Part shown: positions 5,601 through 49,677 of the stretch, in pieces
Position numbering within the stretch: the first letter of the stretch is position 1
How the letters are laid out: every line of letters starts with the position of its first letter
Source: a virus
Virus record (IMG/VR): IMGVR_UViG_3300046779_001442
Coordinates: 46,901 to 110,900 of that record
Length of the DNA: 64,000 nt
Strand: one strand, 5' to 3'
Made by a program: the position numbers and the translations under genes
The notes under the pieces: generated by a model
The model's database searches: none
The model's input: the letters and a program-made list of their open reading frames with translations, nothing else
Told to the model about the DNA's origin: nothing

Positions 5601-6948
5601 ACAAACCCCAACTGGATCTATGGGATATTACCAAGATGGTAAGGTTGGTGGAGCTTCTGGCGGATTAGCAGTTATGTTAAATTCAGCCACCAACAACGGA
5701 TACTATTTTGAAATCATGGCACTAACTGGAGACACAGTTCTTGGAGAAGAAGATGTTATTCTCAATAACGTAGTTTTTTATAAGATTAAGTCTGACTCTA
5801 GTGGCAATGCTGTTCCAGTTAGACTATGGTCTGGAATTGCAAATATAGTAGTAGATTCTGGAAATTTTGCAGGGCAGTCAAGAACAAACACACAAGAAAA
5901 TCCATCAGTATATGACCTAGCTATAGAGTACGAAGAAGTCGATAAAAGATCTGCAAGAAGATTCTACCTATACATAAATAATAAGTGTGTGGCAATTATT
6001 GATGATACAGACCCTCTACCAGCATATCAAAATATTGCACCATTCATTCGTGGCACATCAAGAGTAATGTTTGAAAACATTTATGCCCTTGCAAAGAAAT
6101 ACTCTGTAGATGCTGCTGGTAGCTTGTCAACACCAATTAATTCAGTATTTGGAGATAGTTCAGTTGATGTATCAGAGTCAATGAGAAAATATGCTTTATC
6201 TGGTGCAGTGCAAAAGACATATTTGTCAGACATTAATGGACAACAGGGACCAGGATACGACATGTATTTTGAAGAGTTCGGTACTATTATGCGTGAGGCA
6301 GCATACTTTAATATTAAGTTTGACAAGGCATATCCAGCACTAAGTGCTAAAATATCTCCAACATTCAATAAGGTTAAGGGATATACAGTTTCTGGCTTTA
6401 TGCCAAATGCATATGGTGCAGAGTTTTTAGTATTTAACCATACCGATAGTGTTATAAGTCTTGATGAGACTACTGGAAACTATCTAAGAATTCAGGGCGT
6501 AACCTTTACTCAAAACTCAGATAGAAAGCTAACTCTAGACGACTATTATAAGTATAATAGCGACTTATCAAATGTTGACCATGTTGTATCAGGAACAAAC
6601 TCACCGTTTAAGGCAGAGAAAGAATTTTTTGATATCAAGGCAAGTCGTGCAACATATGGTACGAATGAGTTTTCTCTTAATGCTAAGTATATTCAGACAG
6701 AAGATGCTGCTCGTGATCTTATGGGTTGGGTGATTTCAAAAACTATTAAGCCTAGAAAATCAGTTGGTATGAATGTGTTTGCTGGATCTGTGCTGCAATT
6801 GGGAGATATTGTTCAGATTTTTTGGACTGATGATGACGGAACAGATCAGCTGTTTGATAGAAACAAGAAGTTTGTGGTGTATAGTATTGACTATACGATT
6901 AGTCCAAATGGGCCAACTTCGACTGTATATGTTAGTGAGGTAATCTAA
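2689..6948 (+). CDS. Large minor tail / baseplate hub protein
   Basis: About 1420 aa, beta-rich; C-terminal LQLGDIV motif typical of tail hub proteins; start placed at the TAATG overlap (2689). Confidence 0.6.
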   Translation: MFGNKTLLSHLEKSSNVSISSAIFAEWNMNIPQNFAKIGNYRYRPTSSSIYQTILSSYDKYDTGNFYTGATDADITIDGGIDDDDQPLAFTSPKEQTKLLFSLEECFNKFRPRSGINKAKYFADRYFHYSDKDMAKRPRYYVATKGDAFKYWTSDRTEDGIRGVSYPVRVGNFTNYFIDDAAPFIVYSESVPANRIVVKMQTHIGTINKGPFLSPAGTTLADPFYGQENSKTPTKWRIQYLDENDTWVDAAVFLPTDKRIDGTPIVGPDGYVEVYYGAIIPSEYSSIFNYKRSFVSAQMIPLSPDVGSAYLVKSSATDPGRFYIYTSSGYQSFAAKYGWSLSQTEVLDFRNTVDATASSEYFVDPLSGKKNYSKYQHINGIRVVVDQMNTTNSSFDLIEMSPRLVLDFTGMVESCNVTKSMSDLGNAGMPVGQLLASVGSLSMFDYNEVFNENNKTSVISKYLDQIIKFMIYERITDKSGNQYLVPIKFMYSANKPSLSATTRDLSIELRDLTFWFEQSMSPELFMVDVSMSVAISTLLDSIGFSNYKFLRMDGEKDLIIPYFYTSSEQSVMEVLQDIAVSTQSAIFLDEENNLIVMSKDYLLPSSSLPRATDMILSGEKTNLIDANIEDIAVQESKVFNGGTINYQEKYIQRSYGSIKQSSMIDRNKTWIYKPALLWEASGSLNTKSQNGQLTNQSAYSLAAIPLNSTLPATIPSVVNGSIINNIIDFGEGVYFTTRYNGYFFANGEIVRYDAVEYSMTGQAAPVWIQSTQEYSNYFQQLKFGGTMYPTGRVRIYCEPKYEVVNGVTRFKDGAVNKHGRGQFGTPIVAHEAGLSSVWTNSDGSNPTRGCKMSFSELLSFDETTAQTKSKSLSTGAAGVANSTVVSASRSGIIRNSLSGNYKTDAQINQLKITEFGTVQSSALVFNGPNFTTDVKATDHISYIPKNLNRTYSHFGTRMRIIGRAENGTNKLQTPTGSMGYYQDGKVGGASGGLAVMLNSATNNGYYFEIMALTGDTVLGEEDVILNNVVFYKIKSDSSGNAVPVRLWSGIANIVVDSGNFAGQSRTNTQENPSVYDLAIEYEEVDKRSARRFYLYINNKCVAIIDDTDPLPAYQNIAPFIRGTSRVMFENIYALAKKYSVDAAGSLSTPINSVFGDSSVDVSESMRKYALSGAVQKTYLSDINGQQGPGYDMYFEEFGTIMREAAYFNIKFDKAYPALSAKISPTFNKVKGYTVSGFMPNAYGAEFLVFNHTDSVISLDETTGNYLRIQGVTFTQNSDRKLTLDDYYKYNSDLSNVDHVVSGTNSPFKAEKEFFDIKASRATYGTNEFSLNAKYIQTEDAARDLMGWVISKTIKPRKSVGMNVFAGSVLQLGDIVQIFWTDDDGTDQLFDRNKKFVVYSIDYTISPNGPTSTVYVSEVI

Positions 6949-7955
6949 TGGCAGAAAAACCAAAGGCATCACCAAAAGCTTTATTGCCAACACTTAAACC
7001 AGTTACAACTGGCGTACCAAAGTCTTTGCAAAAGCCAGCTCTGACCTTACAGCAACAGTCTGATAGATCTAGAACAGCATCACGAGCTGCATTTCAAGCT
7101 TCTCCAGCAAAGAAAGAAAGAAATAAAGCAACTCAAAGCGTAATAGCTGCAAATAAAAAAGTTGATCAACTAAAAGCTTCTGCTAATGCTCCAGGGCTAA
7201 CTGCTCAGCAAAAATCAGATAGGATGCGTACTCTTGGTAGGGCACAAAATCAACAGTCAAAAGCAAAGGCTAACCTTAACAAAATAACTGGATATAAGAA
7301 ACCAGTAAAAAAGAGTGATCCAGTCAACACCAAGCCAACAAAGCCAAAAACTACAAAACCAAAGACTACAAAACCAAAGACCACAAAACCAAAAACTACT
7401 AAACCACAAACTGGTAACAATTCTACACTGCCACAAACTACGTCCCCAGTTGATGCTACGGAAAATCCTGTAGTTTCTGCTACCCCAGAGTCTCCATCTC
7501 CAGGAGTTACTTCAGAAGCAGAAAGTGTAAAGACCTATAAGCCTGCTACTCCAGATTTGATTCAGTTACAGGAAGACGAATTTCCAGTAGAGATTATTAC
7601 AGACTTGTTGTTTGAGGATATTGGCGGTACAGAAATTTTAAATTTAGCAAGGCATGACCTTGTGAGTGGTATAGATATAAAATATCAGCAAATATCAAAT
7701 CTTTCCAAGATTGAGGCTGTGTATGGTGGAGCAAACTTGGTTGCACTACAAAACACATCTGAACAAGTGTTTAGTAAATATCCACTCAGAAGATATCAAT
7801 TTATACCAACAGTCACAGATGATCCATCTGGACTAAATAGCCATGTCTACCTTGATGCTGCTGGAGACTTGGTGATAGAGCTAATCAACATAGACAACTC
7901 ATACCAAATAGAGGTAGAGTTCCAGGCAGCAGACATTAATGATATAATATATTGA
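6948..7955 (+). CDS. Probable virion protein with basic N-terminus and PKTTK repeats
   Basis: In tail module, coupled start; low-complexity Lys/Pro/Thr region followed by acidic globular C-terminus. Confidence 0.5.
   Translation: MAEKPKASPKALLPTLKPVTTGVPKSLQKPALTLQQQSDRSRTASRAAFQASPAKKERNKATQSVIAANKKVDQLKASANAPGLTAQQKSDRMRTLGRAQNQQSKAKANLNKITGYKKPVKKSDPVNTKPTKPKTTKPKTTKPKTTKPKTTKPQTGNNSTLPQTTSPVDATENPVVSATPESPSPGVTSEAESVKTYKPATPDLIQLQEDEFPVEIITDLLFEDIGGTEILNLARHDLVSGIDIKYQQISNLSKIEAVYGGANLVALQNTSEQVFSKYPLRRYQFIPTVTDDPSGLNSHVYLDAAGDLVIELINIDNSYQIEVEFQAADINDIIY
7341..7406 (+). repeat. 15-bp tandem repeat (about 4.4 copies) encoding KPKTT
   Basis: aagccaaaaactaca aaaccaaagactaca aaaccaaagaccaca aaaccaaaaactact aaacca. 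Confidence 0.9.
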
Positions 7956-34492: not shown

Positions 34493-35605
34493 TTGGGTAT
34501 GAAAAAATTTGCAACTGTTTTAACAACAGCATTTTTGCTAACTGGATTCGTTAATGCGTCTGAAGCTGCTGTATTCCAGCCTTGCTCTGCAAAAAAAGTA
34601 AATGTAGTAAGCAATAATAAGATATGCAAAAAGGTTGGAATTTTTTATAGGTGGGTTAGTCTACCAACAAAAAGCAAGGCTCCAATTGCCACACCCAAGC
34701 CAAGTCCAACTATAACGGCACAGCCAATAACTGCAACAGACTATTCAGTGCTGCTGACATCATTTGACGATGTTGATAAGTATCTGTTTGTTAATGACTA
34801 CAGGCTACCAACTAATAATATAAAATTTGGTCCAAGCCTTGATCCAAAAATTGTGTCTAATGGTACTGAGGCCTTTGTCTCTATTGCAAGTGTGTTCTCT
34901 ACTTTTTATTCTCCATCATATTATTATGCAATAGTTACATCAGAAAAGGACCGTGAGTGGGCAGCATCACCATCAATCAACAAGATTGACTCTAGGTTTA
35001 CTGGACTATATGGCAATACCTGTGAAAACGGTAATAGCGGAAATGAGTGGAGTTCAATTTCATGCACCTGGTCTGATAAAACAGAGTGGTACAGAATGGA
35101 ATTGCTTGCACATGAATATACTCATAGCGTAATCTATAGCACTGGAGGAACAAAGACTGGTGCAGTTAGCAACTACCAAAGGGCATTTGACATTCCTTCT
35201 TGGCTCAATGAGGGTGCTGCAACATACTATGGATGGTGGCTAGGATCTATAAAAGATAAAAACATTTCTGCACATATAAAGGGCCACCTTAACGGATTTG
35301 CATGCAGCGTTCCAGGCTATTCAGATTTACCAAACCCAGAAAAGCTAGCATCTGAGATGAAGCAGATAGAAACTGGTGCAGGGCATTCATTTAAACAATA
35401 TGGGTACGGTGCTATTGCTGTAGCAGAATTAGTATCAAAGTATGGAGGGCACAAAGCAATGCTTGACTTCTATACACAGATGCGTTATACTAGTAATTGG
35501 AAAGATGCATTTGAAAAGTCATTTGGAGTTACTCCAGATAAGTTTTATGTTGAACAATATAAAGATTTTATTAAAATGCTTCCAGACTTGACATGTAAAC
35601 GATAA
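34493..35605 (+). CDS. Secreted zinc metallopeptidase-like protein
   Basis: Signal peptide, Pro/Thr linker, HEYTH...WLNEG gluzincin motif. Confidence 0.75.
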   Translation: MGMKKFATVLTTAFLLTGFVNASEAAVFQPCSAKKVNVVSNNKICKKVGIFYRWVSLPTKSKAPIATPKPSPTITAQPITATDYSVLLTSFDDVDKYLFVNDYRLPTNNIKFGPSLDPKIVSNGTEAFVSIASVFSTFYSPSYYYAIVTSEKDREWAASPSINKIDSRFTGLYGNTCENGNSGNEWSSISCTWSDKTEWYRMELLAHEYTHSVIYSTGGTKTGAVSNYQRAFDIPSWLNEGAATYYGWWLGSIKDKNISAHIKGHLNGFACSVPGYSDLPNPEKLASEMKQIETGAGHSFKQYGYGAIAVAELVSKYGGHKAMLDFYTQMRYTSNWKDAFEKSFGVTPDKFYVEQYKDFIKMLPDLTCKR

Positions 35606-35616
35606 CGTGTTATAAT
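35588..35616 (+). promoter_or_regulatory. Consensus promoter for tRNA array
   Basis: TTGACA-17nt-TATAAT with TG extension. Confidence 0.85.
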
Positions 35617-35633
35617 AAAATACAACTTAATAA

Positions 35634-35706
35634 TGCCCTATAGCTCAGCTGGCAGAGCGTCCGACTGTTAATCGGCAGGTCCCTGGTTCGATCCCAGGTG
35701 GGGCAG
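35634..35706 (+). tRNA. tRNA-Asn(GTT)
   Basis: Cloverleaf; anticodon loop ctGTTaa; GTTCGA T-loop. Confidence 0.92.
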
Positions 35707-35710
35707 CAAA

Positions 35711-35890
35711 CACATTAACGACGGTTGATGTGGAGTATGACCGAATAATTCCCAGAGTCAAATGGGGGGAATAAGGTACTATCGGATCTTAGCGGATCGT
35801 CTTAGCGGACAAACGGTAGGTGTGCTCAAAGCGGTACTTGACGAGCCGTATTGACTAGGCACTGGTGGTAAAATGCAATCCACCTACTCA
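35711..35890 (+). ncRNA. Candidate structured ncRNA A
   Basis: No long ORF; several stems, twin TTAGCG-loop hairpins. Confidence 0.55.
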
Positions 35891-35894
35891 CTTT

Positions 35895-35965
35895 GCGAAT
35901 GTTGCATAATGGTAGTGCCTCTGCCTTCCAAGCAGAAGGTGAGAGTTCGATTCTCTCTATTCGCT
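35895..35965 (+). tRNA. tRNA-Gly(TCC)
   Basis: Cloverleaf; loop ctTCCaa. Confidence 0.92.
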
Positions 35966-35966
35966 C

Positions 35967-36136
35967 TATAGGCTAATCACCTATACGTGTACAAGTGTAC
36001 GTAAAAATTCAACACTTGAGAATGTCCAGGCATTGGTTTAATCTGGCGTGTAGGCACCTCACGATATAGGTTCGGAGCTAGTCACTCGTCTTAGGAAACG
36101 ACTCAGGGATATAGATCTGATTAATCTGATATCCCA
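35967..36136 (+). ncRNA. Candidate structured ncRNA B
   Basis: No long ORF; several hairpins, e.g. gggatatagat-ctgatta-atctgatatccc. Confidence 0.5.
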
Positions 36137-36139
36137 CTT

Positions 36140-36213
36140 GGTCTCATAGTTCAGTTGGTTAGAACGCCACCCTGTCACGGTGGAGGTCAGGGGTTCAAGT
36201 CCCCTTGGGATCG
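36140..36213 (+). tRNA. tRNA-Asp(GTC)
   Basis: Cloverleaf; loop ctGTCac. Confidence 0.93.
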
Positions 36214-36220
36214 CTCAGAA

Positions 36221-36379
36221 GCATAAGTCTGAACAACTTATGTGGAGATTGTTATACCGAAACCTGCACTGTGGACGCATCATACGAAGGGGTTCAGCCC
36301 GATGGAGATTGCTCTGCTAACCCACTAGGTATAACAGCCAATGGCAAACTTCCTTAACCAAAAGGTGAGCACGATTGGC
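36221..36379 (+). ncRNA. Candidate structured ncRNA C
   Basis: gcataagt/acttatgt hairpin; tgttatacc/ggtataaca closing stem; gccaat/attggc stem. Confidence 0.55.
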
Positions 36380-36383
36380 AAAT

Positions 36384-36457
36384 GCTTCCTTAGCTCAGTT
36401 GGCCAGAGCAATCGCCTTGTAAGCGATAGGTCGTCAGTTCGAACCTGACAGGGAGCT
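36384..36457 (+). tRNA. tRNA-Thr(TGT)
   Basis: Cloverleaf; loop ctTGTaa. Confidence 0.93.
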
Positions 36458-36461
36458 CGAT

Positions 36462-36533
36462 GGCCCCATCGTCTATCGGTTAGGACTCCAGATTTTCAAT
36501 CTGGCAAGACGGGTTCGATTCCCGTTGGGGCTA
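36462..36533 (+). tRNA. tRNA-Glu(TTC)
   Basis: Cloverleaf; loop ttTTCaa. Confidence 0.92.
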
Positions 36534-36565
36534 CTATAGCATAAAAAGTATGCTATACTATAACT

Positions 36566-36661
36566 ATGGAGCTAACTATGAAGTATTCAAACCAGCAATC
36601 GCATGTGCGATTTAGTCTGGCGTACTCTTGGCATTTAGCCAGTCTCCAGCCGAGTATCTAA
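36566..36661 (+). CDS. Putative leaderless 31-aa leader peptide
   Basis: TGCTATACT + 6 nt + ATG; MELTMKYSNQQSHVRFSLAYSWHLASLQPSI. Confidence 0.45.
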   Translation: MELTMKYSNQQSHVRFSLAYSWHLASLQPSI

Positions 36662-36748
36662 TCTAACTCGCTTAAACAAATAGATTATCTAATAAAAATC
36701 CAAACAATCACAATTTAATACAATACCAAACAGTTAGTTCCATAACAT

Positions 36749-36822
36749 ATCGTATTGGTGTAGTGGTAGCACAACAGCTTCCAAACCTGTTGGCGTGGGT
36801 TCGATTCCTACATACTTTGCCA
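36749..36822 (+). tRNA. tRNA-Trp(CCA), atypical
   Basis: Cloverleaf with loop ttCCAaa and encoded CCA; two acceptor-stem mismatches and C31:C39. Confidence 0.75.
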
Positions 36823-36895
36823 CCTGATATAGCTCAATTGGTAGAGCGTCTGTTTGAAGCACAGAAGGTTCTTGGTTCGATTCCAAGTGTTAGGA
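36823..36895 (+). tRNA. tRNA-Phe(GAA)
   Basis: Cloverleaf; loop ttGAAgc. Confidence 0.88.
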
Positions 36896-36896
36896 C

Positions 36897-36925
36897 TTGA
36901 CAACTAAATATAGAAAAGATATAAT
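36897..36925 (+). promoter_or_regulatory. Internal consensus promoter in tRNA array
   Basis: TTGACA-17nt-TATAAT; tRNA-Met starts after 6 nt. Confidence 0.85.
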
Positions 36926-36931
36926 ATACAT

Positions 36932-37009
36932 TGCGGAGTAGAGCAGTTCGGACAGCTCAGCAGCCTCATAAGCTGAAGGTCGTGGGTTCAAATCCCACCT
37001 CCGCAACCA
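36932..37009 (+). tRNA. tRNA-Met(CAT), initiator-like
   Basis: Loop ctCATaa; fMet-like D arm and TTCAAAT T-loop; encoded CCA. Confidence 0.85.
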
Positions 37010-37010
37010 A

Positions 37011-37082
37011 CTAGATATAGTGAAGCGGTATCACGCCTGTTTTGGGAACAGGAGATCGCAGGTTCAATCCCTGCTATCTAGA
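37011..37082 (+). tRNA. tRNA-Pro(TGG)
   Basis: Cloverleaf; loop ttTGGga. Confidence 0.9.
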
Positions 37083-37086
37083 CGAT

Positions 37087-37162
37087 AGATGTATGGCCAA
37101 GTGGTTAAGGCACTGCTCTGATAAGGCAGGGATCGCTGGTTCAAATCCAGCTACATCTACCA
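37087..37162 (+). tRNA. tRNA-Ile(GAT)
   Basis: Loop ctGATaa; encoded CCA. Confidence 0.9.
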
Positions 37163-37163
37163 T

Positions 37164-37235
37164 ACCAATATAGCTCAGCGGAAGAGCAATGGTCTACGAA
37201 GCCATGAGTCAAAGGTTCGAATCCTTTTATTGGTA
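37164..37235 (+). tRNA. tRNA-Arg(ACG)
   Basis: Loop ctACGaa. Confidence 0.9.
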
Positions 37236-37238
37236 CGA

Positions 37239-37321
37239 GGAAGTGCGTCGCAGTTGGAGAGGCGAGGCGGTCTGTAAAACCGTTGGGTGCACCTGAGTCA
37301 GTTCGAATCTGACCACTTCCA
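37239..37321 (+). tRNA. tRNA-Tyr(GTA)
   Basis: Loop ctGTAaa; long variable arm. Confidence 0.9.
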
Positions 37322-37323
37322 CT

Positions 37324-37397
37324 GTGGTACTAGTTCAATGGTAGAACGCTTGGTTGTGGTCCAAGGAATGAGGGTTCAATTCCCTCGTATCACCCCA
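37324..37397 (+). tRNA. tRNA-His(GTG)
   Basis: Loop ttGTGgt; C73 and encoded CCA. Confidence 0.9.
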
Positions 37398-37470
37398 GGG
37401 TCTTTAGCTCAATTGGGAGAGCGTCTGGTTTGCATCCAGAAGGCTAGGAGTTCGATTCTCCTAAGATCCA
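37398..37470 (+). tRNA. tRNA-Ala(TGC)
   Basis: Loop ttTGCat; G3:U70. Confidence 0.92.
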
Positions 37471-37474
37471 CAGC

Positions 37475-37545
37475 AGTCCATTAGCTCAATGGTAGAGCAG
37501 CTGGCTTACATCCAGTAGACAGGAGTTCGATTCTCTTATGGACTA
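37475..37545 (+). tRNA. tRNA-Val(TAC)
   Basis: Loop ctTACat. Confidence 0.9.
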
Positions 37546-37546
37546 C

Positions 37547-37619
37547 GCTTCTCTAGCCCAACGGTAGAGGCAGTAGTCTTAGAAGCTACAAAGTGTGAGT
37601 TCAAATCTCACGGGAAGCA
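37547..37619 (+). tRNA. tRNA-Leu(TAG), short variable loop
   Basis: Loop ctTAGaa. Confidence 0.88.
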
Positions 37620-37620
37620 C

Positions 37621-37710
37621 GGAAGGACAATCCGATTGGCGACGGAACCTGTCTTGAAAACAGTTGAGGTGTTAAAGCCCTTGGGAGTTCGACTCTCCCT
37701 CCTTCCGCCA
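37621..37710 (+). tRNA. tRNA-Ser(TGA)
   Basis: Loop ctTGAaa; long variable arm; GCCA end. Confidence 0.92.
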
Positions 37711-37711
37711 A

Positions 37712-37784
37712 GCTTCTCTAGTCCAACGGTAGAGACATCAGATTCAAACCCTGATCAGTATAGGTTCAAATCCTATGGGAAGCA
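37712..37784 (+). tRNA. tRNA-Leu(CAA), short variable loop
   Basis: Loop ttCAAac; same acceptor stem as Leu(TAG). Confidence 0.85.
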
Positions 37785-37788
37785 CAAA

Positions 37789-37861
37789 GCCCTTATAGCC
37801 CAGTGGTAGAGGTAAGCGACTTAAAATCGTTTCAGCGATGGTTCGAATCCATCTGGGGGCA
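37789..37861 (+). tRNA. tRNA-Leu(TAA), short variable loop
   Basis: Loop ctTAAaa. Confidence 0.88.
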
Positions 37862-37862
37862 C

Positions 37863-37949
37863 GGAAGCATGGCAGAGTGGTCCATTGCAGCGGTTTGCTA
37901 AACCGTGGGTGTAACAGCCCCGTAGGTTCGAATCCTACTGTTTCCGCCA
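37863..37949 (+). tRNA. tRNA-Ser(GCT)
   Basis: Loop ttGCTaa; long variable arm; GCCA end. Confidence 0.92.
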
Positions 37950-37950
37950 T

Positions 37951-38022
37951 GCCCCTATAGCTCAGCGGTAGAGCTGCGGACTTTTAATCCGTAGGCCCTT
38001 GGTTCGATCCCAAGTGGGGGCA
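37951..38022 (+). tRNA. tRNA-Lys(TTT)
   Basis: Loop ctTTTaa. Confidence 0.93.
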
Positions 38023-38026
38023 CTAT

Positions 38027-38097
38027 TCTCCCTTCGTCCAACGGCAGGACACTAGGTTTTGGCCCTAGGAATCGTGGTTCGAATCCACGGGGGAGAG
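38027..38097 (+). tRNA. tRNA-Gln(TTG)
   Basis: Loop ttTTGgc. Confidence 0.9.
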
Positions 38098-38142
38098 CAA
38101 GATAAAGCGATTAATGCTATAATAGGTTGGAAAGGTTTGGAT

Positions 38143-46760: not shown

Positions 46761-47947
46761 GAAATAAATGTCGTGCATGCGACAGCCCTAAACTATTTTT
46801 AGCTATTGACCTTGGCATACAGCCATTAGCTGGTGGATTTGTAAAAGAAAAAGAGCCATCATATCTGTATCCAAACAAAATGATGGTTTGCAGTGATTGT
46901 GGACTGGGTCAGTTATCAGTTGATATCAAGCCAAGCGAATTGTACAAGAACTATAACTGGAGAACATCAACAAGTAAGTCCTATCTAAATTATATTTATG
47001 AGTTTGCTGATAAACATATTATTCCTAGGATTAACCCAGGTGAATGGGTCTTGGAAATTGCAAGCAACGATGGATACTTACTCAAATATTTGCAATCAAA
47101 TGGAATAGATGTCCTTGGCGTAGATCCTGCAGAAAATATCTCTAGGTACGCTATTTGTGATGGTGTTCCAGTAATCACAGACTTTTTTGGAACCAAGGTA
47201 GCAGAAGATGTAGTCAGGCTAAAGGGTAAACCTAAGTGGATTATTGCTAACAATGTTATGGCACACACACCAGACATTCAAGATTTTATGGCAGGCATAT
47301 CAATGCTATGTGATAGAGATACGATTGTTACTGTGGAAAATCCGACCATAATGAACATCATTGACCATGACCACTTTGATGTGATCTTCCATGAACATTA
47401 CTCATATTTGTCTGCACACGCTGTTGCAAAGCTTGCAAATAAGATGGGCCTATCTCTATTCAACGTTCAGTCAGTGCCTCCGCAAGGTGGTTCCAATAGG
47501 TATTGGATCAAGCAGGGTGGGGAGCCAACTGAGGGAGTTAGGGTAGCAATCAGGGAAGAGCTGCAGTATGGTCTTTTAGATAGAAACAAATGGTCTGAGA
47601 CACAAGATAGAATTCGCCAATCAGCAAATAGTTTTAATGGCAGGGTTGAATCTATCTGGCAATCTGGTGGAGTTGTATGTGGTGTTGGTGCATCTGCAAA
47701 GTCAACAGTGGTTCTTAATTTTGCTGGCGTACAGTCAAAAAGAATTTCAGCAATTGCTGATGATGTAAAAGAGAAGCAGGGACACTATGTCCCTGGACCC
47801 AACATTCCAATCATAAGTATGGATGAAATGCTAAAAATGAATCCAACTGATATAATAGTTTTTGCTTGGAACATTCGAGAAGAGCTAGAAAATAAGCTAA
47901 GAAATTTAGGATACACTGGAAAAGTCTGGGTATGGAACGGAGAATAA
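46751..47947 (+). CDS. NDP-hexose C-methyltransferase family protein
   Basis: CRAC...CSDC zinc motif, LEIASNDG, NNVMAH, FHEHYSY, GASAK, FAWN. Confidence 0.88.
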   Translation: MVIRNKCRACDSPKLFLAIDLGIQPLAGGFVKEKEPSYLYPNKMMVCSDCGLGQLSVDIKPSELYKNYNWRTSTSKSYLNYIYEFADKHIIPRINPGEWVLEIASNDGYLLKYLQSNGIDVLGVDPAENISRYAICDGVPVITDFFGTKVAEDVVRLKGKPKWIIANNVMAHTPDIQDFMAGISMLCDRDTIVTVENPTIMNIIDHDHFDVIFHEHYSYLSAHAVAKLANKMGLSLFNVQSVPPQGGSNRYWIKQGGEPTEGVRVAIREELQYGLLDRNKWSETQDRIRQSANSFNGRVESIWQSGGVVCGVGASAKSTVVLNFAGVQSKRISAIADDVKEKQGHYVPGPNIPIISMDEMLKMNPTDIIVFAWNIREELENKLRNLGYTGKVWVWNGE

Positions 47948-49389: not shown

Positions 49390-49677
49390 ATGGCTAGATC
49401 TAAAGACGATTGGGTAGATAGTGCAAGATGTAAAAACTTTGACACAAACCTATTCTTTGATACATATGAAGAAGATCTTGAGATACGTGAAGATGTAGAA
49501 ACTCTTTGCTCCATGTGTCCTGTTGCAAGACATTGCTTTGCAGTAGGAGTCTCGCAAAAGGGCTGGGGTGTCTGGGGTGGCATATATCTAGAAGATGGAG
49601 AAATCTCTCGTGAATTTAACAGACATAAAACTAAGGCTAAGTGGGCTGCCACCTGGAAGTATTTGACGGTAGACTAA
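49390..49677 (+). CDS. whiB: WhiB-family Fe-S transcription factor
   Basis: W...ARC...LFF...CxxCPV...C...WGVWGG. Confidence 0.9.
   Translation: MARSKDDWVDSARCKNFDTNLFFDTYEEDLEIREDVETLCSMCPVARHCFAVGVSQKGWGVWGGIYLEDGEISREFNRHKTKAKWAATWKYLTVD

Follow-up and report, generated by a model that had tools for sequence, protein, structure and literature searches.

What is held in the 214-nucleotide (nt) gap that separates two genes of a phage transfer RNA (tRNA) array, and could it set the output of the tRNA genes behind it? The gap lies within a 64,000-nt stretch (the window; positions 46,901 to 110,900) of IMG/VR virus record IMGVR_UViG_3300046779_001442, a genome of 110.9 kb with 39.6% G+C of which the window is a part, and it is filled, from the end of tRNA-Glu at 36534 to the start of tRNA-Trp at 36749, by what we call the leader element. 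Phage tRNA arrays are usually seen as a fixed supplement to the host tRNA pool or as a counter to tRNA-cleaving defences, and to our knowledge little is known about how their expression is controlled. A sequence-only reading had singled out in this gap a mini open reading frame (mini-ORF) that appeared to start at the very 5' end of its transcript and to be followed by a tract resembling a Rho-utilisation (rut) site. It had proposed that ribosome stalling on the mini-ORF, in the manner of tnaC, senses the tRNA pool and switches on the downstream tRNAs, with an end-paired 178-nt non-coding RNA as the alternative. Here we argue from the comparison of related loci that the ORF is very probably a real translated unit whose peptide is under selection, translation itself being read from the pattern of substitutions. 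All positions are window coordinates, and the features of the leader lie on the plus strand.

The mini-ORF carries a coding signature

The mini-ORF (36566-36661) consists of 31 codons and a TAA stop at 36659-36661, and encodes MELTMKYSNQQSHVRFSLAYSWHLASLQPSI. Homologues were collected by three pattern scans, built on the two arms of a helix described below, on a degenerate back-translation of the peptide core and on the body of tRNA-Trp; the scans that yielded the 15 related loci, with their 13 distinct ORF sequences, did not require a tRNA. The loci, designated here by L numbers, come in two forms. In the long form (the window, L009, L010, L018-L020, L011, L015, L022 and L023) an ORF of 30-31 codons is followed by a spacer of 78-88 nt that ends in an arm pairing with the start of the ORF. 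The short form (L012, L013, L014, L016, L017 and L021) has an ORF of 33 codons and a tail of 33-34 nt with no G at all, and has neither the distal arm nor the hairpin at the stop codon (hairpin 3, below).

The frame is kept in all 13 distinct sequences, with no frameshift and no early stop. Three indel events fall inside the ORF, each of 3 nt, and the shift of the stop in the short form is likewise in frame; most indels in the spacer after the stop measure 1 or 7 nt, and a single one 9. Counted along a minimum spanning tree of the 13 sequences, changes in the frame of the ORF comprise 33 synonymous and 43 non-synonymous ones (43% synonymous), as against 12 and 52 (19%) or 7 and 53 (12%) in the two other frames, and they are distributed over codon positions 1, 2 and 3 as 23, 18 and 35. 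The position of the stop is constant within each form, and the stop itself is TGA in L010 and TAA in the others. The bias of in-frame changes towards synonymous ones, the in-frame indels and the exchange of TAA for TGA together argue for a translated frame and a selected peptide, and they speak against the purely non-coding 178-nt RNA that had been held out as the alternative.

The sequence-only reading had predicted that relatives would keep the frame and the codon diversity without conserving the peptide. The frame is indeed kept, in 13 of 13, but in the short form, with 22 distinct codons among 33, codon diversity drops to an average level, and the peptide has a conserved core, R(F/Y)SLAYSW..ASLQ, with few replacements. 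Within the core, synonymous switches are frequent enough to include AGT/AGC, CTG/TTG, GCG/GCC/GCA, TCT/TCA/TCG and CAG/CAA. The N-terminal third after MELTMK and the C-terminus are free to vary.

A conserved core amid many synonymous changes, in 13 distinct sequences without a frameshift or an early stop, is also what one would see if the 30-33 residue peptide acted in trans, e.g. by inhibiting or modulating some factor of the host or the phage. The promoter and transcript would then merely be shared with the tRNAs, and RNase P would free the mRNA from the tRNA precursor. Small genes do occur among phage tRNA genes, as segB does in the tRNA cluster of T4 (PMC2330249). The free variation at both ends of the peptide counts against such a micro-protein, as does its lack of relatives: the peptide had no match in PHROGs, Pfam or NCBIfam and no usable hit in the ESM Atlas, and a search of 1.84 billion protein representatives returned only two repeat proteins, each summing 6-10 weak stretches. 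We rejected these two as relatives, since the motif is only loosely similar and the scores are sums of weak stretches, and judged both hits spurious.

The leader and the tRNAs behind it share one RNA molecule

Run X18 is a metatranscriptome in which the protein genes flanking the array have zero depth; because a DNA run covers those same genes at ~260-350, we take the X18 signal to be RNA. One X18 contig of 326 nt, with a depth of 49, runs unbroken over 36561-36865 and so spans the ORF, the spacer, tRNA-Trp and 43 nt of tRNA-Phe. The leader and the tRNAs are on one RNA molecule. No RNA contig bridges from tRNA-Glu, upstream of 36561, and this is not evidence of a start. Other X18 contigs cover a manA RNA in the same array (depth 2115), the RNA of the spacer between tRNA-Asp and tRNA-Thr (180-230) and the later tRNAs (5-10), with the reservation that contig depth is not an expression measure and that contigs cannot show a start, processing sites or relative levels.

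A promoter at a fixed distance from the first ATG

An extended -10 element, TGC-TATACT (36551-36559), is followed by the 6-nt discriminator ATAACT (36560-36565) and then by the ATG at 36566, exactly as had been read from the window alone; the predicted transcription start is the A of this ATG, and the -35 position is poor (CTACTA). A TAYAMT hexamer with an upstream TG is present in all homologues, and all 14 aligned sequences place it exactly 6 nt before the ATG. The letters of these 6 nt take eight forms (ATAACT, AAAACT, ATATCT, ATATAA, AAATAT, ATATCC, TAACAT and AAACAT). Because the distance is constant while the letters vary, the transcription start is probably the A of the ATG or a base no more than a few positions away. 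The layout has what is expected of a leaderless gene, with a -10 hexamer 6-7 nt upstream and no room for a Shine-Dalgarno sequence.

The claim that other genes of this phage are leaderless with the same spacing is upheld genome-wide: TAYAMT-N6-ATG occurs 21 times, as against ~7.5 at other spacings, an enrichment of about three-fold, and at ~15 of the 21 sites the hexamer is a perfect TATAAT or TATACT with an ORF of 54-231 codons following. Sites with this layout include 19258, 48388, 52075, 56259, 60031 and 62829 on the plus strand and 63854 on the minus strand, and the start is usually ATGG. Leaderless mRNAs are common in Actinobacteria (PMC4633059).

Directly after tRNA-Glu lies a perfect 9-bp inverted repeat (TATAGCATA-N5-TATGCTATA, 36535-36557), the 3' arm of which overlaps the -10 box; it had escaped the sequence-only reading. 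This repeat may close the upstream transcript as an RNA hairpin or serve as a DNA operator. The repeat is retained in the group to which the window belongs and persists as a 7-bp version in L022 and L023; in L011, L015 and most short-form relatives a -35 box, mostly TTGCAA (TTGGCA in L014), replaces it, at 17 bp in most relatives that have no inverted repeat.

The first 18 nt of the ORF, ATGGAG-N-TAACTATGAAG, are invariant at the nucleotide level apart from N. They contain GGAG-N6-ATG, i.e. a Shine-Dalgarno core (GGAG, 36568-36571) placed 6 nt ahead of a second in-frame ATG at codon 5 (36578). The sequence-only reading had overlooked this potential second start. Codons 2-4 show no synonymous variation except CTA/TTA at codon 3.

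Structural constraint overlaps the coding sequence

The 214-nt spacer folds at -50.6 kcal/mol, as against -28.9 +/- 3.6 for its shuffles (z = -6.0). Its ends pair as had been proposed: AGTTAGTTCCAT (36732-36743) forms 12 bp, one of them G-U, with ATGGAGCTAACT (36566-36577). Counting U36565-A36744, this end helix, P1, has 13 bp, the 5' strand (36565-36577) covering the first ATG and GGAG and the 3' strand (36732-36744), in effect an anti-start and anti-GGAG sequence, ending 4 nt before tRNA-Trp. P1 can hide the first AUG and GGAG only once its distal arm, ~165 nt downstream, has been made. Among the relatives there is one compensatory change from C-G to U-A (in 3 sequences) and one change from G-C to G-U; the end helix is thus borne out by covariation, but its 3' strand is missing in the six short-form relatives. 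A proposed 5-bp extension of P1 (GUAUU/AAUAC) was dropped, being broken in 2 of 7 sequences.

Three hairpins lie between the arms. Hairpin 1 (AAUCGC, loop AUGU, GCGAUU; 36597-36612) sits inside the ORF. Its stem is kept, with one C-G to U-G change and with four synonymous third positions almost invariant, and its loop varies (AUGU, ACUU, AUCA, GACA). The stem of hairpin 2 (UGGC, loop AUUUA, GCCA; 36629-36641) holds the sole Trp codon and is invariant in 13 of 13 sequences; the loop varies in sequence and in length (3 to 8 nt), and the length change is in frame. A T-box-like reading of UGGC/GCCA found no Rfam support and is mere speculation. Hairpin 3 (UAAUCUA, 15-nt loop, UAGAUUA; 36659-36687), confined to the long form, begins its 5' arm with the stop codon; again the stem is kept and the loop varies, and the TAA-to-TGA change of L010 gives a G-U pair. 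A further element common to both forms, CUCCA (36644-36648), is complementary to UGGAG (36567-36571), with which it could form a short-range pairing at the 5' end. In the short form this pairing is predicted by RNAalifold; both segments are invariant and so give no covariation.

Across the long form, the four helices pair in 99% of sequence-by-pair cells, as against 22-40% with slid partners. All changes in stems keep pairing except at the outermost P1 pair, which is unpaired in two sequences. Among degenerate third codon positions, 1 of the 8 located in stems varies, as do 14 of the 19 located elsewhere (Fisher p = 0.008). Because third positions are nearly frozen in stems and variable outside, the comparison indicates that the leader RNA is under both coding and structural selection.

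How much of this would be left if the structured RNA itself were the functional unit, either as an end-paired stable RNA or as an aid to the processing or folding of the tRNA precursor, with translation incidental or secondary? The fold energy, four helices kept amid variable loops, with one compensatory pair and three wobble-compatible changes, and the nearly frozen synonymous sites would all follow. The neighbouring gaps moreover hold structured RNAs, namely the manA RNA and the Asp-Thr spacer RNA, with high contig depth, and the tRNA cluster of T4 co-transcribes stable RNAs of unknown function (species 1 and 2). An RNA-only element would not, however, be expected to show frame-specific substitutions, in-frame indels, a kept stop position and a change from one stop to another. 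Six relatives keep the ORF without the end helix or hairpin 3, and no Rfam family matches the coding strand at E <= 10. With Rfam 15, which includes the T-box and manA families, 36535-36748 gave no match at E <= 1, and the sole match at E <= 10 was HOTAIRM1_4 on the antisense strand (15.1 bits, E = 9.4), which is at chance level. We regard an RNA-only function as improbable. A DNA element resembling a miniature inverted-repeat transposable element, with the 13 bp of P1 as its terminal inverted repeats, is disfavoured too, since relatives without the 3' arm keep the 5' arm as the start of the ORF and since the mismatch in the window is a G-U pair only in the plus-strand RNA.

The structural data also bear on the trans-acting micro-protein. 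Conserved stems constrain synonymous sites, and a covarying long-form helix that hides the start codon once the leader is complete would be odd for a product needed in quantity.

A G-poor tract leads into tRNA-Trp

Between the stop codon and the distal arm lies an A/C-rich, G-poor tract (36662-36731; A35 C15 G2 T18) that is predicted to be mostly unstructured beyond hairpin 3. The count of 15 C and only 2 G in 70 nt, on which the sequence-only reading had based its rut-like label, is correct. On the plus strand of the whole genome, only 9 of 110,831 70-nt windows have two G or fewer, and all of them lie at this tract. The sequence of the tract is poorly conserved; its composition is conserved, with a C/G ratio of 2.1-3.4 between hairpin 2 and the tRNA in all homologues. 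The likeness to the rut-like tracts of tnaC-type leaders is thus one of composition only. The likeness to tnaC does not extend to the position of the Trp codon, since the distance from Trp to the last codon is 9 residues in long-form loci but 12 in short-form ones, unlike in tnaC.

Codon usage and the tRNA genes downstream

The ORF has 26 distinct codons in 31 positions, among them four Leu and four Ser codons as well as CGA, TCG, CCG and GCG, and these last four, which had looked rare in this genome, are so (1.6-3.4 per 1000). The earlier judgement that this diversity is modestly above random is an understatement: 26 of 31 falls in the top 2.1% of windows in the phage's genes (mean 21.1 over its long ORFs). 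Six codons of the ORF are used at <5 per 1000, a number reached by 0.7% of 31-codon windows in the phage's own genes. The ORF favours Gln, Ser, Leu, Arg, His, Tyr and Trp and has no Gly, Asp or Cys codons; there is a single Trp codon, and the only tandem repeat is CAG-CAA (Gln-Gln). Four rare codons are invariant, namely CGA and TCG (hairpin 1), CTC (CUCCA) and CGC (short-form C-terminus). With three of these four in stems or pairings, we rejected designed pausing as the main explanation of the rare codons.

Could the mini-ORF take a census of the whole tRNA pool, with maximal codon diversity, an irrelevant peptide and a tnaC-type Rho switch that turns on all downstream tRNAs upon host tRNA cleavage? 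The codon diversity of the window and the rut-like composition after the stop would fit. The peptide, however, is conserved, codon diversity in the short form is only average, the composition is uneven, and the distance from Trp to the stop is not fixed. Neither does the leader command the array: a consensus promoter, TTGACA-17-TATAAT (36897-36925), bypasses it for 15 of the 17 downstream tRNAs in this phage, so that a switch for the whole downstream array, as had been imagined, is left with tRNA-Trp (CCA) and tRNA-Phe (GAA) (36749-36896), the genes between the leader and that promoter. The comparative data have already weakened the census reading, which we consider highly improbable.

The second promoter ends 6 nt short of the first base of tRNA-Met (36932), near which transcription is predicted to restart. 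The tRNA-Met transcript may perhaps have no 5' leader, in which case RNase P cleavage at that end would not be needed. A 35-nt gap matching the region of this promoter is also found in L009, L010, L018 and L020 and is missing from the contiguous arrays of L011 and L022.

The mini-ORF is firmly tied to one tRNA gene. In every locus tRNA-Trp follows it directly, at a distance of 33-88 nt and with downstream arrays of 5 to 17 tRNAs, and every contig with this tRNA-Trp body also carries the ORF. Even in L014, where two protein genes stand between tRNA-Glu and the leader, the promoter, ORF and tRNA-Trp remain together. The first of these inserted genes (5676-7316 for the insertion in L014) begins with MILVTGGAGFIGSH, and the -35 box of the leader overlaps the end of the second. 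We take MILVTGGAGFIGSH to be the Rossmann motif typical of NAD-dependent sugar epimerases/dehydratases. Seven contigs related through a neighbouring protein (L002-L008) do not show the element: the array ends at tRNA-Glu in L002 and L005, L003 and L006 are cut off before its position, and L004 and L008 have a different tRNA-Trp and no ORF. Near and distant DNA searches of 50,697 records of cultured phages gave only tRNA matches or chance hits, and a degenerate pattern scan of 185,579 species genomes gave no match.

We compared the codons of each ORF, start codon excluded, with the tRNAs encoded downstream at the same locus under ordinary wobble rules. Downstream tRNAs read 25 of 30 ORF codons in the window (background 0.62, in the phage's genes), 22 of 30 in L018 (0.49) and 19 of 30 in L022 (0.36). 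In the short form they read 18 of 32 in L012 (0.19), 15 of 32 in both L013 (0.13) and L016 (0.12), and 13 of 32 in L017 (0.12). Binomial P values range from 0.01 to ~1e-6, in support of an enrichment of the ORF in codons decoded by the tRNAs behind it. The other frames match at 3-6 of 31 codons in the short form, 17-21 of 29 in the window and 11-12 of 29 in L022, the margin of the coding frame being smaller in the long form; shuffles that keep base composition match at ~5-7 in the short form and 17.5 in the window (P <= 0.003). Because the match is frame-specific and exceeds these shuffles, it is not a by-product of A/C-rich loops.

Permuting the arrays among nine loci gives P = 0.001, an effect carried by the split between long and short forms. 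Set against the minimal arrays, short-form peptides have 13-15 codons read and long-form peptides 9-11, and the changes between the forms go largely toward the array (GTG to CAG, TTT to TAT, CTG to TTG, TTA to CAT-CAA, and loss of CCG). Two finer correspondences were looked at. The choice of F or Y at position 16 follows the presence of tRNA-Phe in 12 loci and fails in L021; being a single phylogenetic event, it was rejected. His is missing only from the ORF of L016, the sole array without tRNA-His, a single case that we do not count as evidence. On the whole, the co-variation of codons and tRNAs is suggestive, not proof. A trans-acting micro-protein offers no reason for a frame-specific match to the downstream tRNA set, nor would it call for an excess of rare codons, and with the points raised above we think it rather unlikely.

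Array organisation and host

The window holds a single array of 22 tRNA genes (35634-38098). It is non-uniform, its early part having spacers of ~170-190 nt, and a perfect consensus promoter of the TTGACA-17-TATAAT type also stands at 35588-35616, upstream of tRNA-Asn (35634). The spacer between tRNA-Asn and tRNA-Gly (35713-35894) is a full-length match to the manA RNA (RF01745; 65.8 bits, gathering score 55.2), here in what appears to be an actinobacterial phage, not in a cyanophage or a gamma-proteobacterium. The Asp-Thr spacer (36208-36377) has no Rfam match and a weak fold (z = -1.3); spacers of similar length persist between these two genes in L002, L004, L005 and L008-L010. In the short-form arrays of L012 (2701-2792) and L014 (7880-7972), ARAGORN reports a tRNA-like gene of 92-93 nt with an undetermined two-letter anticodon, which may be an intron-containing or otherwise odd tRNA.

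The tRNA-Trp of the window's group (36749-36822) has two non-standard acceptor pairs (2-71 U-U and 3-70 C-U) and, at 47.8 bits, the lowest tRNA score of the array; its CCA is encoded. In L011 and L012 the acceptor stem of tRNA-Trp is intact and CCA is not encoded. The leader sequence GAAGUAU (36580-36586) pairs with the 3' acceptor strand of tRNA-Trp better than that strand's own 5' partner does, which may be coincidence.

A WhiB-family gene (PF02467, 45.7 bits, over the cut-off) lies at 49411-49587 of the window, i.e. at 96311-96487 of the genome, and the sequencing runs that hold the stretch are all freshwater, aquatic or wetland metagenomes. An actinobacterial host fits because of these two observations: the WhiB gene points to it, and the whole fits a lake phage of Actinobacteria.

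Discussion

In this study we have described a small, very probably translated gene in the leader of a phage tRNA transcription unit. We lean, at a little short of an even chance, towards the mini-ORF being a cis-acting translated leader peptide that couples translation to tRNA output, perhaps via Rho. On this reading a tRNA transcription unit of its own would begin here, and its 5' leader would double as a small translated gene. A ribosome would start on the nascent transcript and read a peptide of 30-33 codons, largely those served by the tRNAs encoded behind the ORF, and its speed through the ORF would set the fraction of transcripts that continue into the tRNA genes. Rho is the natural candidate effector because there is no intrinsic terminator, and its candidate entry site would be the C-over-G tract between the last codons and the tRNA. 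Were a ribosome held up close to the end of the ORF, it would shield this tract and RNA polymerase would run on into the tRNA genes, a step modelled on tnaC or on mycobacterial upstream open reading frame (uORF)/Rho systems. In the long form, P1 would then shut the start codon and GGAG, limiting translation to the period of leader synthesis.

A narrower and doubtful form of this coupling makes the mini-gene a ribosome-read gauge of the phage's own tRNA supply, the codon set of which co-evolves with the downstream tRNA genes. The lineage with 5-8 tRNAs would have swapped Val, Phe, Pro, CTG and TTA codons for array-read Gln, Tyr, His and TTG ones, and ribosome speed would be turned into read-through by Rho loading on the G-free tract, aided by closure of the 5' end in the long form.

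Several points weigh against a coupling of translation to tRNA output. As to its reach, the promoter at 36897-36925 means that the leader could gate at most tRNA-Trp and tRNA-Phe in this phage. As to the output step, the tract is more A-rich (50%) than C-rich (21%), and in the short form, with a G-free tail of 33-34 nt, the candidate rut comes to ~63 nt even when the 3' end of the ORF is included, which is short for Rho. We found no intrinsic terminator-like site from the ORF to tRNA-Trp (36566-36749) and no mutually exclusive pair among the predicted helices of either form, and because neither was found the output step is pure inference, as are a role for Rho and the direction or existence of any regulation. 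As to the start, a Shine-Dalgarno-led start at codon 5 (36578) is possible, as is a 5' end that is processed rather than primary; the first base of the RNA contig, 36561, lies 5 nt upstream of the ATG, and a transcription start cannot be mapped from contigs.

The codons themselves give further grounds for doubt. The ORF has no run of one regulatory codon, and RNA structure can account for much of the surplus of rare codons, since pairing ties up three of the four that are invariant. When arrays are permuted within each group, the result is not significant (P = 0.17 and 0.25); no more than two or three independent lineages underlie the codon-match statistics, and L021 breaks the correspondence of the F/Y position with tRNA-Phe. 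Conservation of the peptide at the amino-acid level is not needed by a simple codon gauge and fits a trans-acting micro-protein equally well.

Should the gauge hold, it would be a feedback attenuator of a tRNA operon that has no intrinsic terminator, in a leaderless actinobacterial setting, and the codon-mirroring leader would give the phage a direct, ribosome-measured read-out of its decoding capacity. Leader-peptide control would then extend from amino-acid and transporter genes to tRNA genes; our literature search found no published leader peptide for a tRNA operon. The two natural architectures, with and without the helix that closes the 5' end, and the arrays of 5-17 tRNAs provide a comparative series. 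If the regulatory idea fails, the locus is still a clean case of coding and structural selection acting at once on a single RNA, and of an unannotated 31-codon phage gene that can be recognised from comparative data alone.

Comparison with known systems

The leader has likenesses to four kinds of known element. Structured RNAs embedded in phage tRNA clusters include the manA RNA (RF01745; Weinberg et al. 2010, PMC2864571). Like it and like the species 1 and 2 RNAs of T4, the leader is a non-tRNA element of ~180 nt that is co-transcribed with phage tRNAs and would be released by tRNA processing, and the ends of its long form are paired. Unlike them, it is headed by a promoter of its own, contains a frame with a coding signature and has no Rfam match.

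Coupling of a uORF to Rho termination is described for the Mbox uORF of M. tuberculosis (PMC12810186) and for toiL of E. coli (PMC12121999; Rho is reviewed in PMC12360218). With tnaC and these uORF/Rho systems the leader shares a short ORF of ~24-33 codons, a conserved Trp, no intrinsic terminator and a G-poor, C-over-G tract that begins at the end of the ORF. It differs in that its peptide has no sequence relation to TnaC (no Pfam or NCBIfam match), the distance between Trp and the stop varies, the candidate rut is rich in A (and, in short-form loci, short as well), and the would-be regulated genes are tRNAs.

In mycobacteria, the landscape of leaderless small ORFs has been charted (PMC4633059), and leaderless short ORFs encoding polycysteine (polycysteine sORFs) act as attenuators (Canestrari et al., bioRxiv 10.1101/834739). 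As in those attenuators, the host here is probably one of the Actinobacteria, the mRNA is predicted to start on the AUG or beside it, its first cistron is a short ORF that had not been annotated, and ribosome progress on this ORF is proposed to set downstream expression. Unlike the polycysteine sORFs, the phage leader has no codon run, and no homologue has a Cys codon; the element is phage-encoded, and the genes downstream are tRNAs, which have no ribosome-binding site. The mycobacterial mechanism, in which a stalled ribosome unmasks a ribosome-binding site, cannot apply here because the downstream genes are tRNAs.

The classical leader-peptide attenuators of amino-acid operons are trpL, hisL, pheL and leuL. 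The phage leader is, on present comparison, not an attenuator of the trpL type, because it has no intrinsic terminator, no mutually exclusive hairpins and no run of a regulatory codon: tandem regulatory codons, a terminator/antiterminator pair and a U-tract terminator are all absent from it, and its peptide is conserved beyond any regulatory codons. What it does have in common with this class is a short leader ORF lying directly upstream of the tRNA genes, on the same transcript, whose codons correspond to what the operon supplies, here tRNAs and not amino acids.

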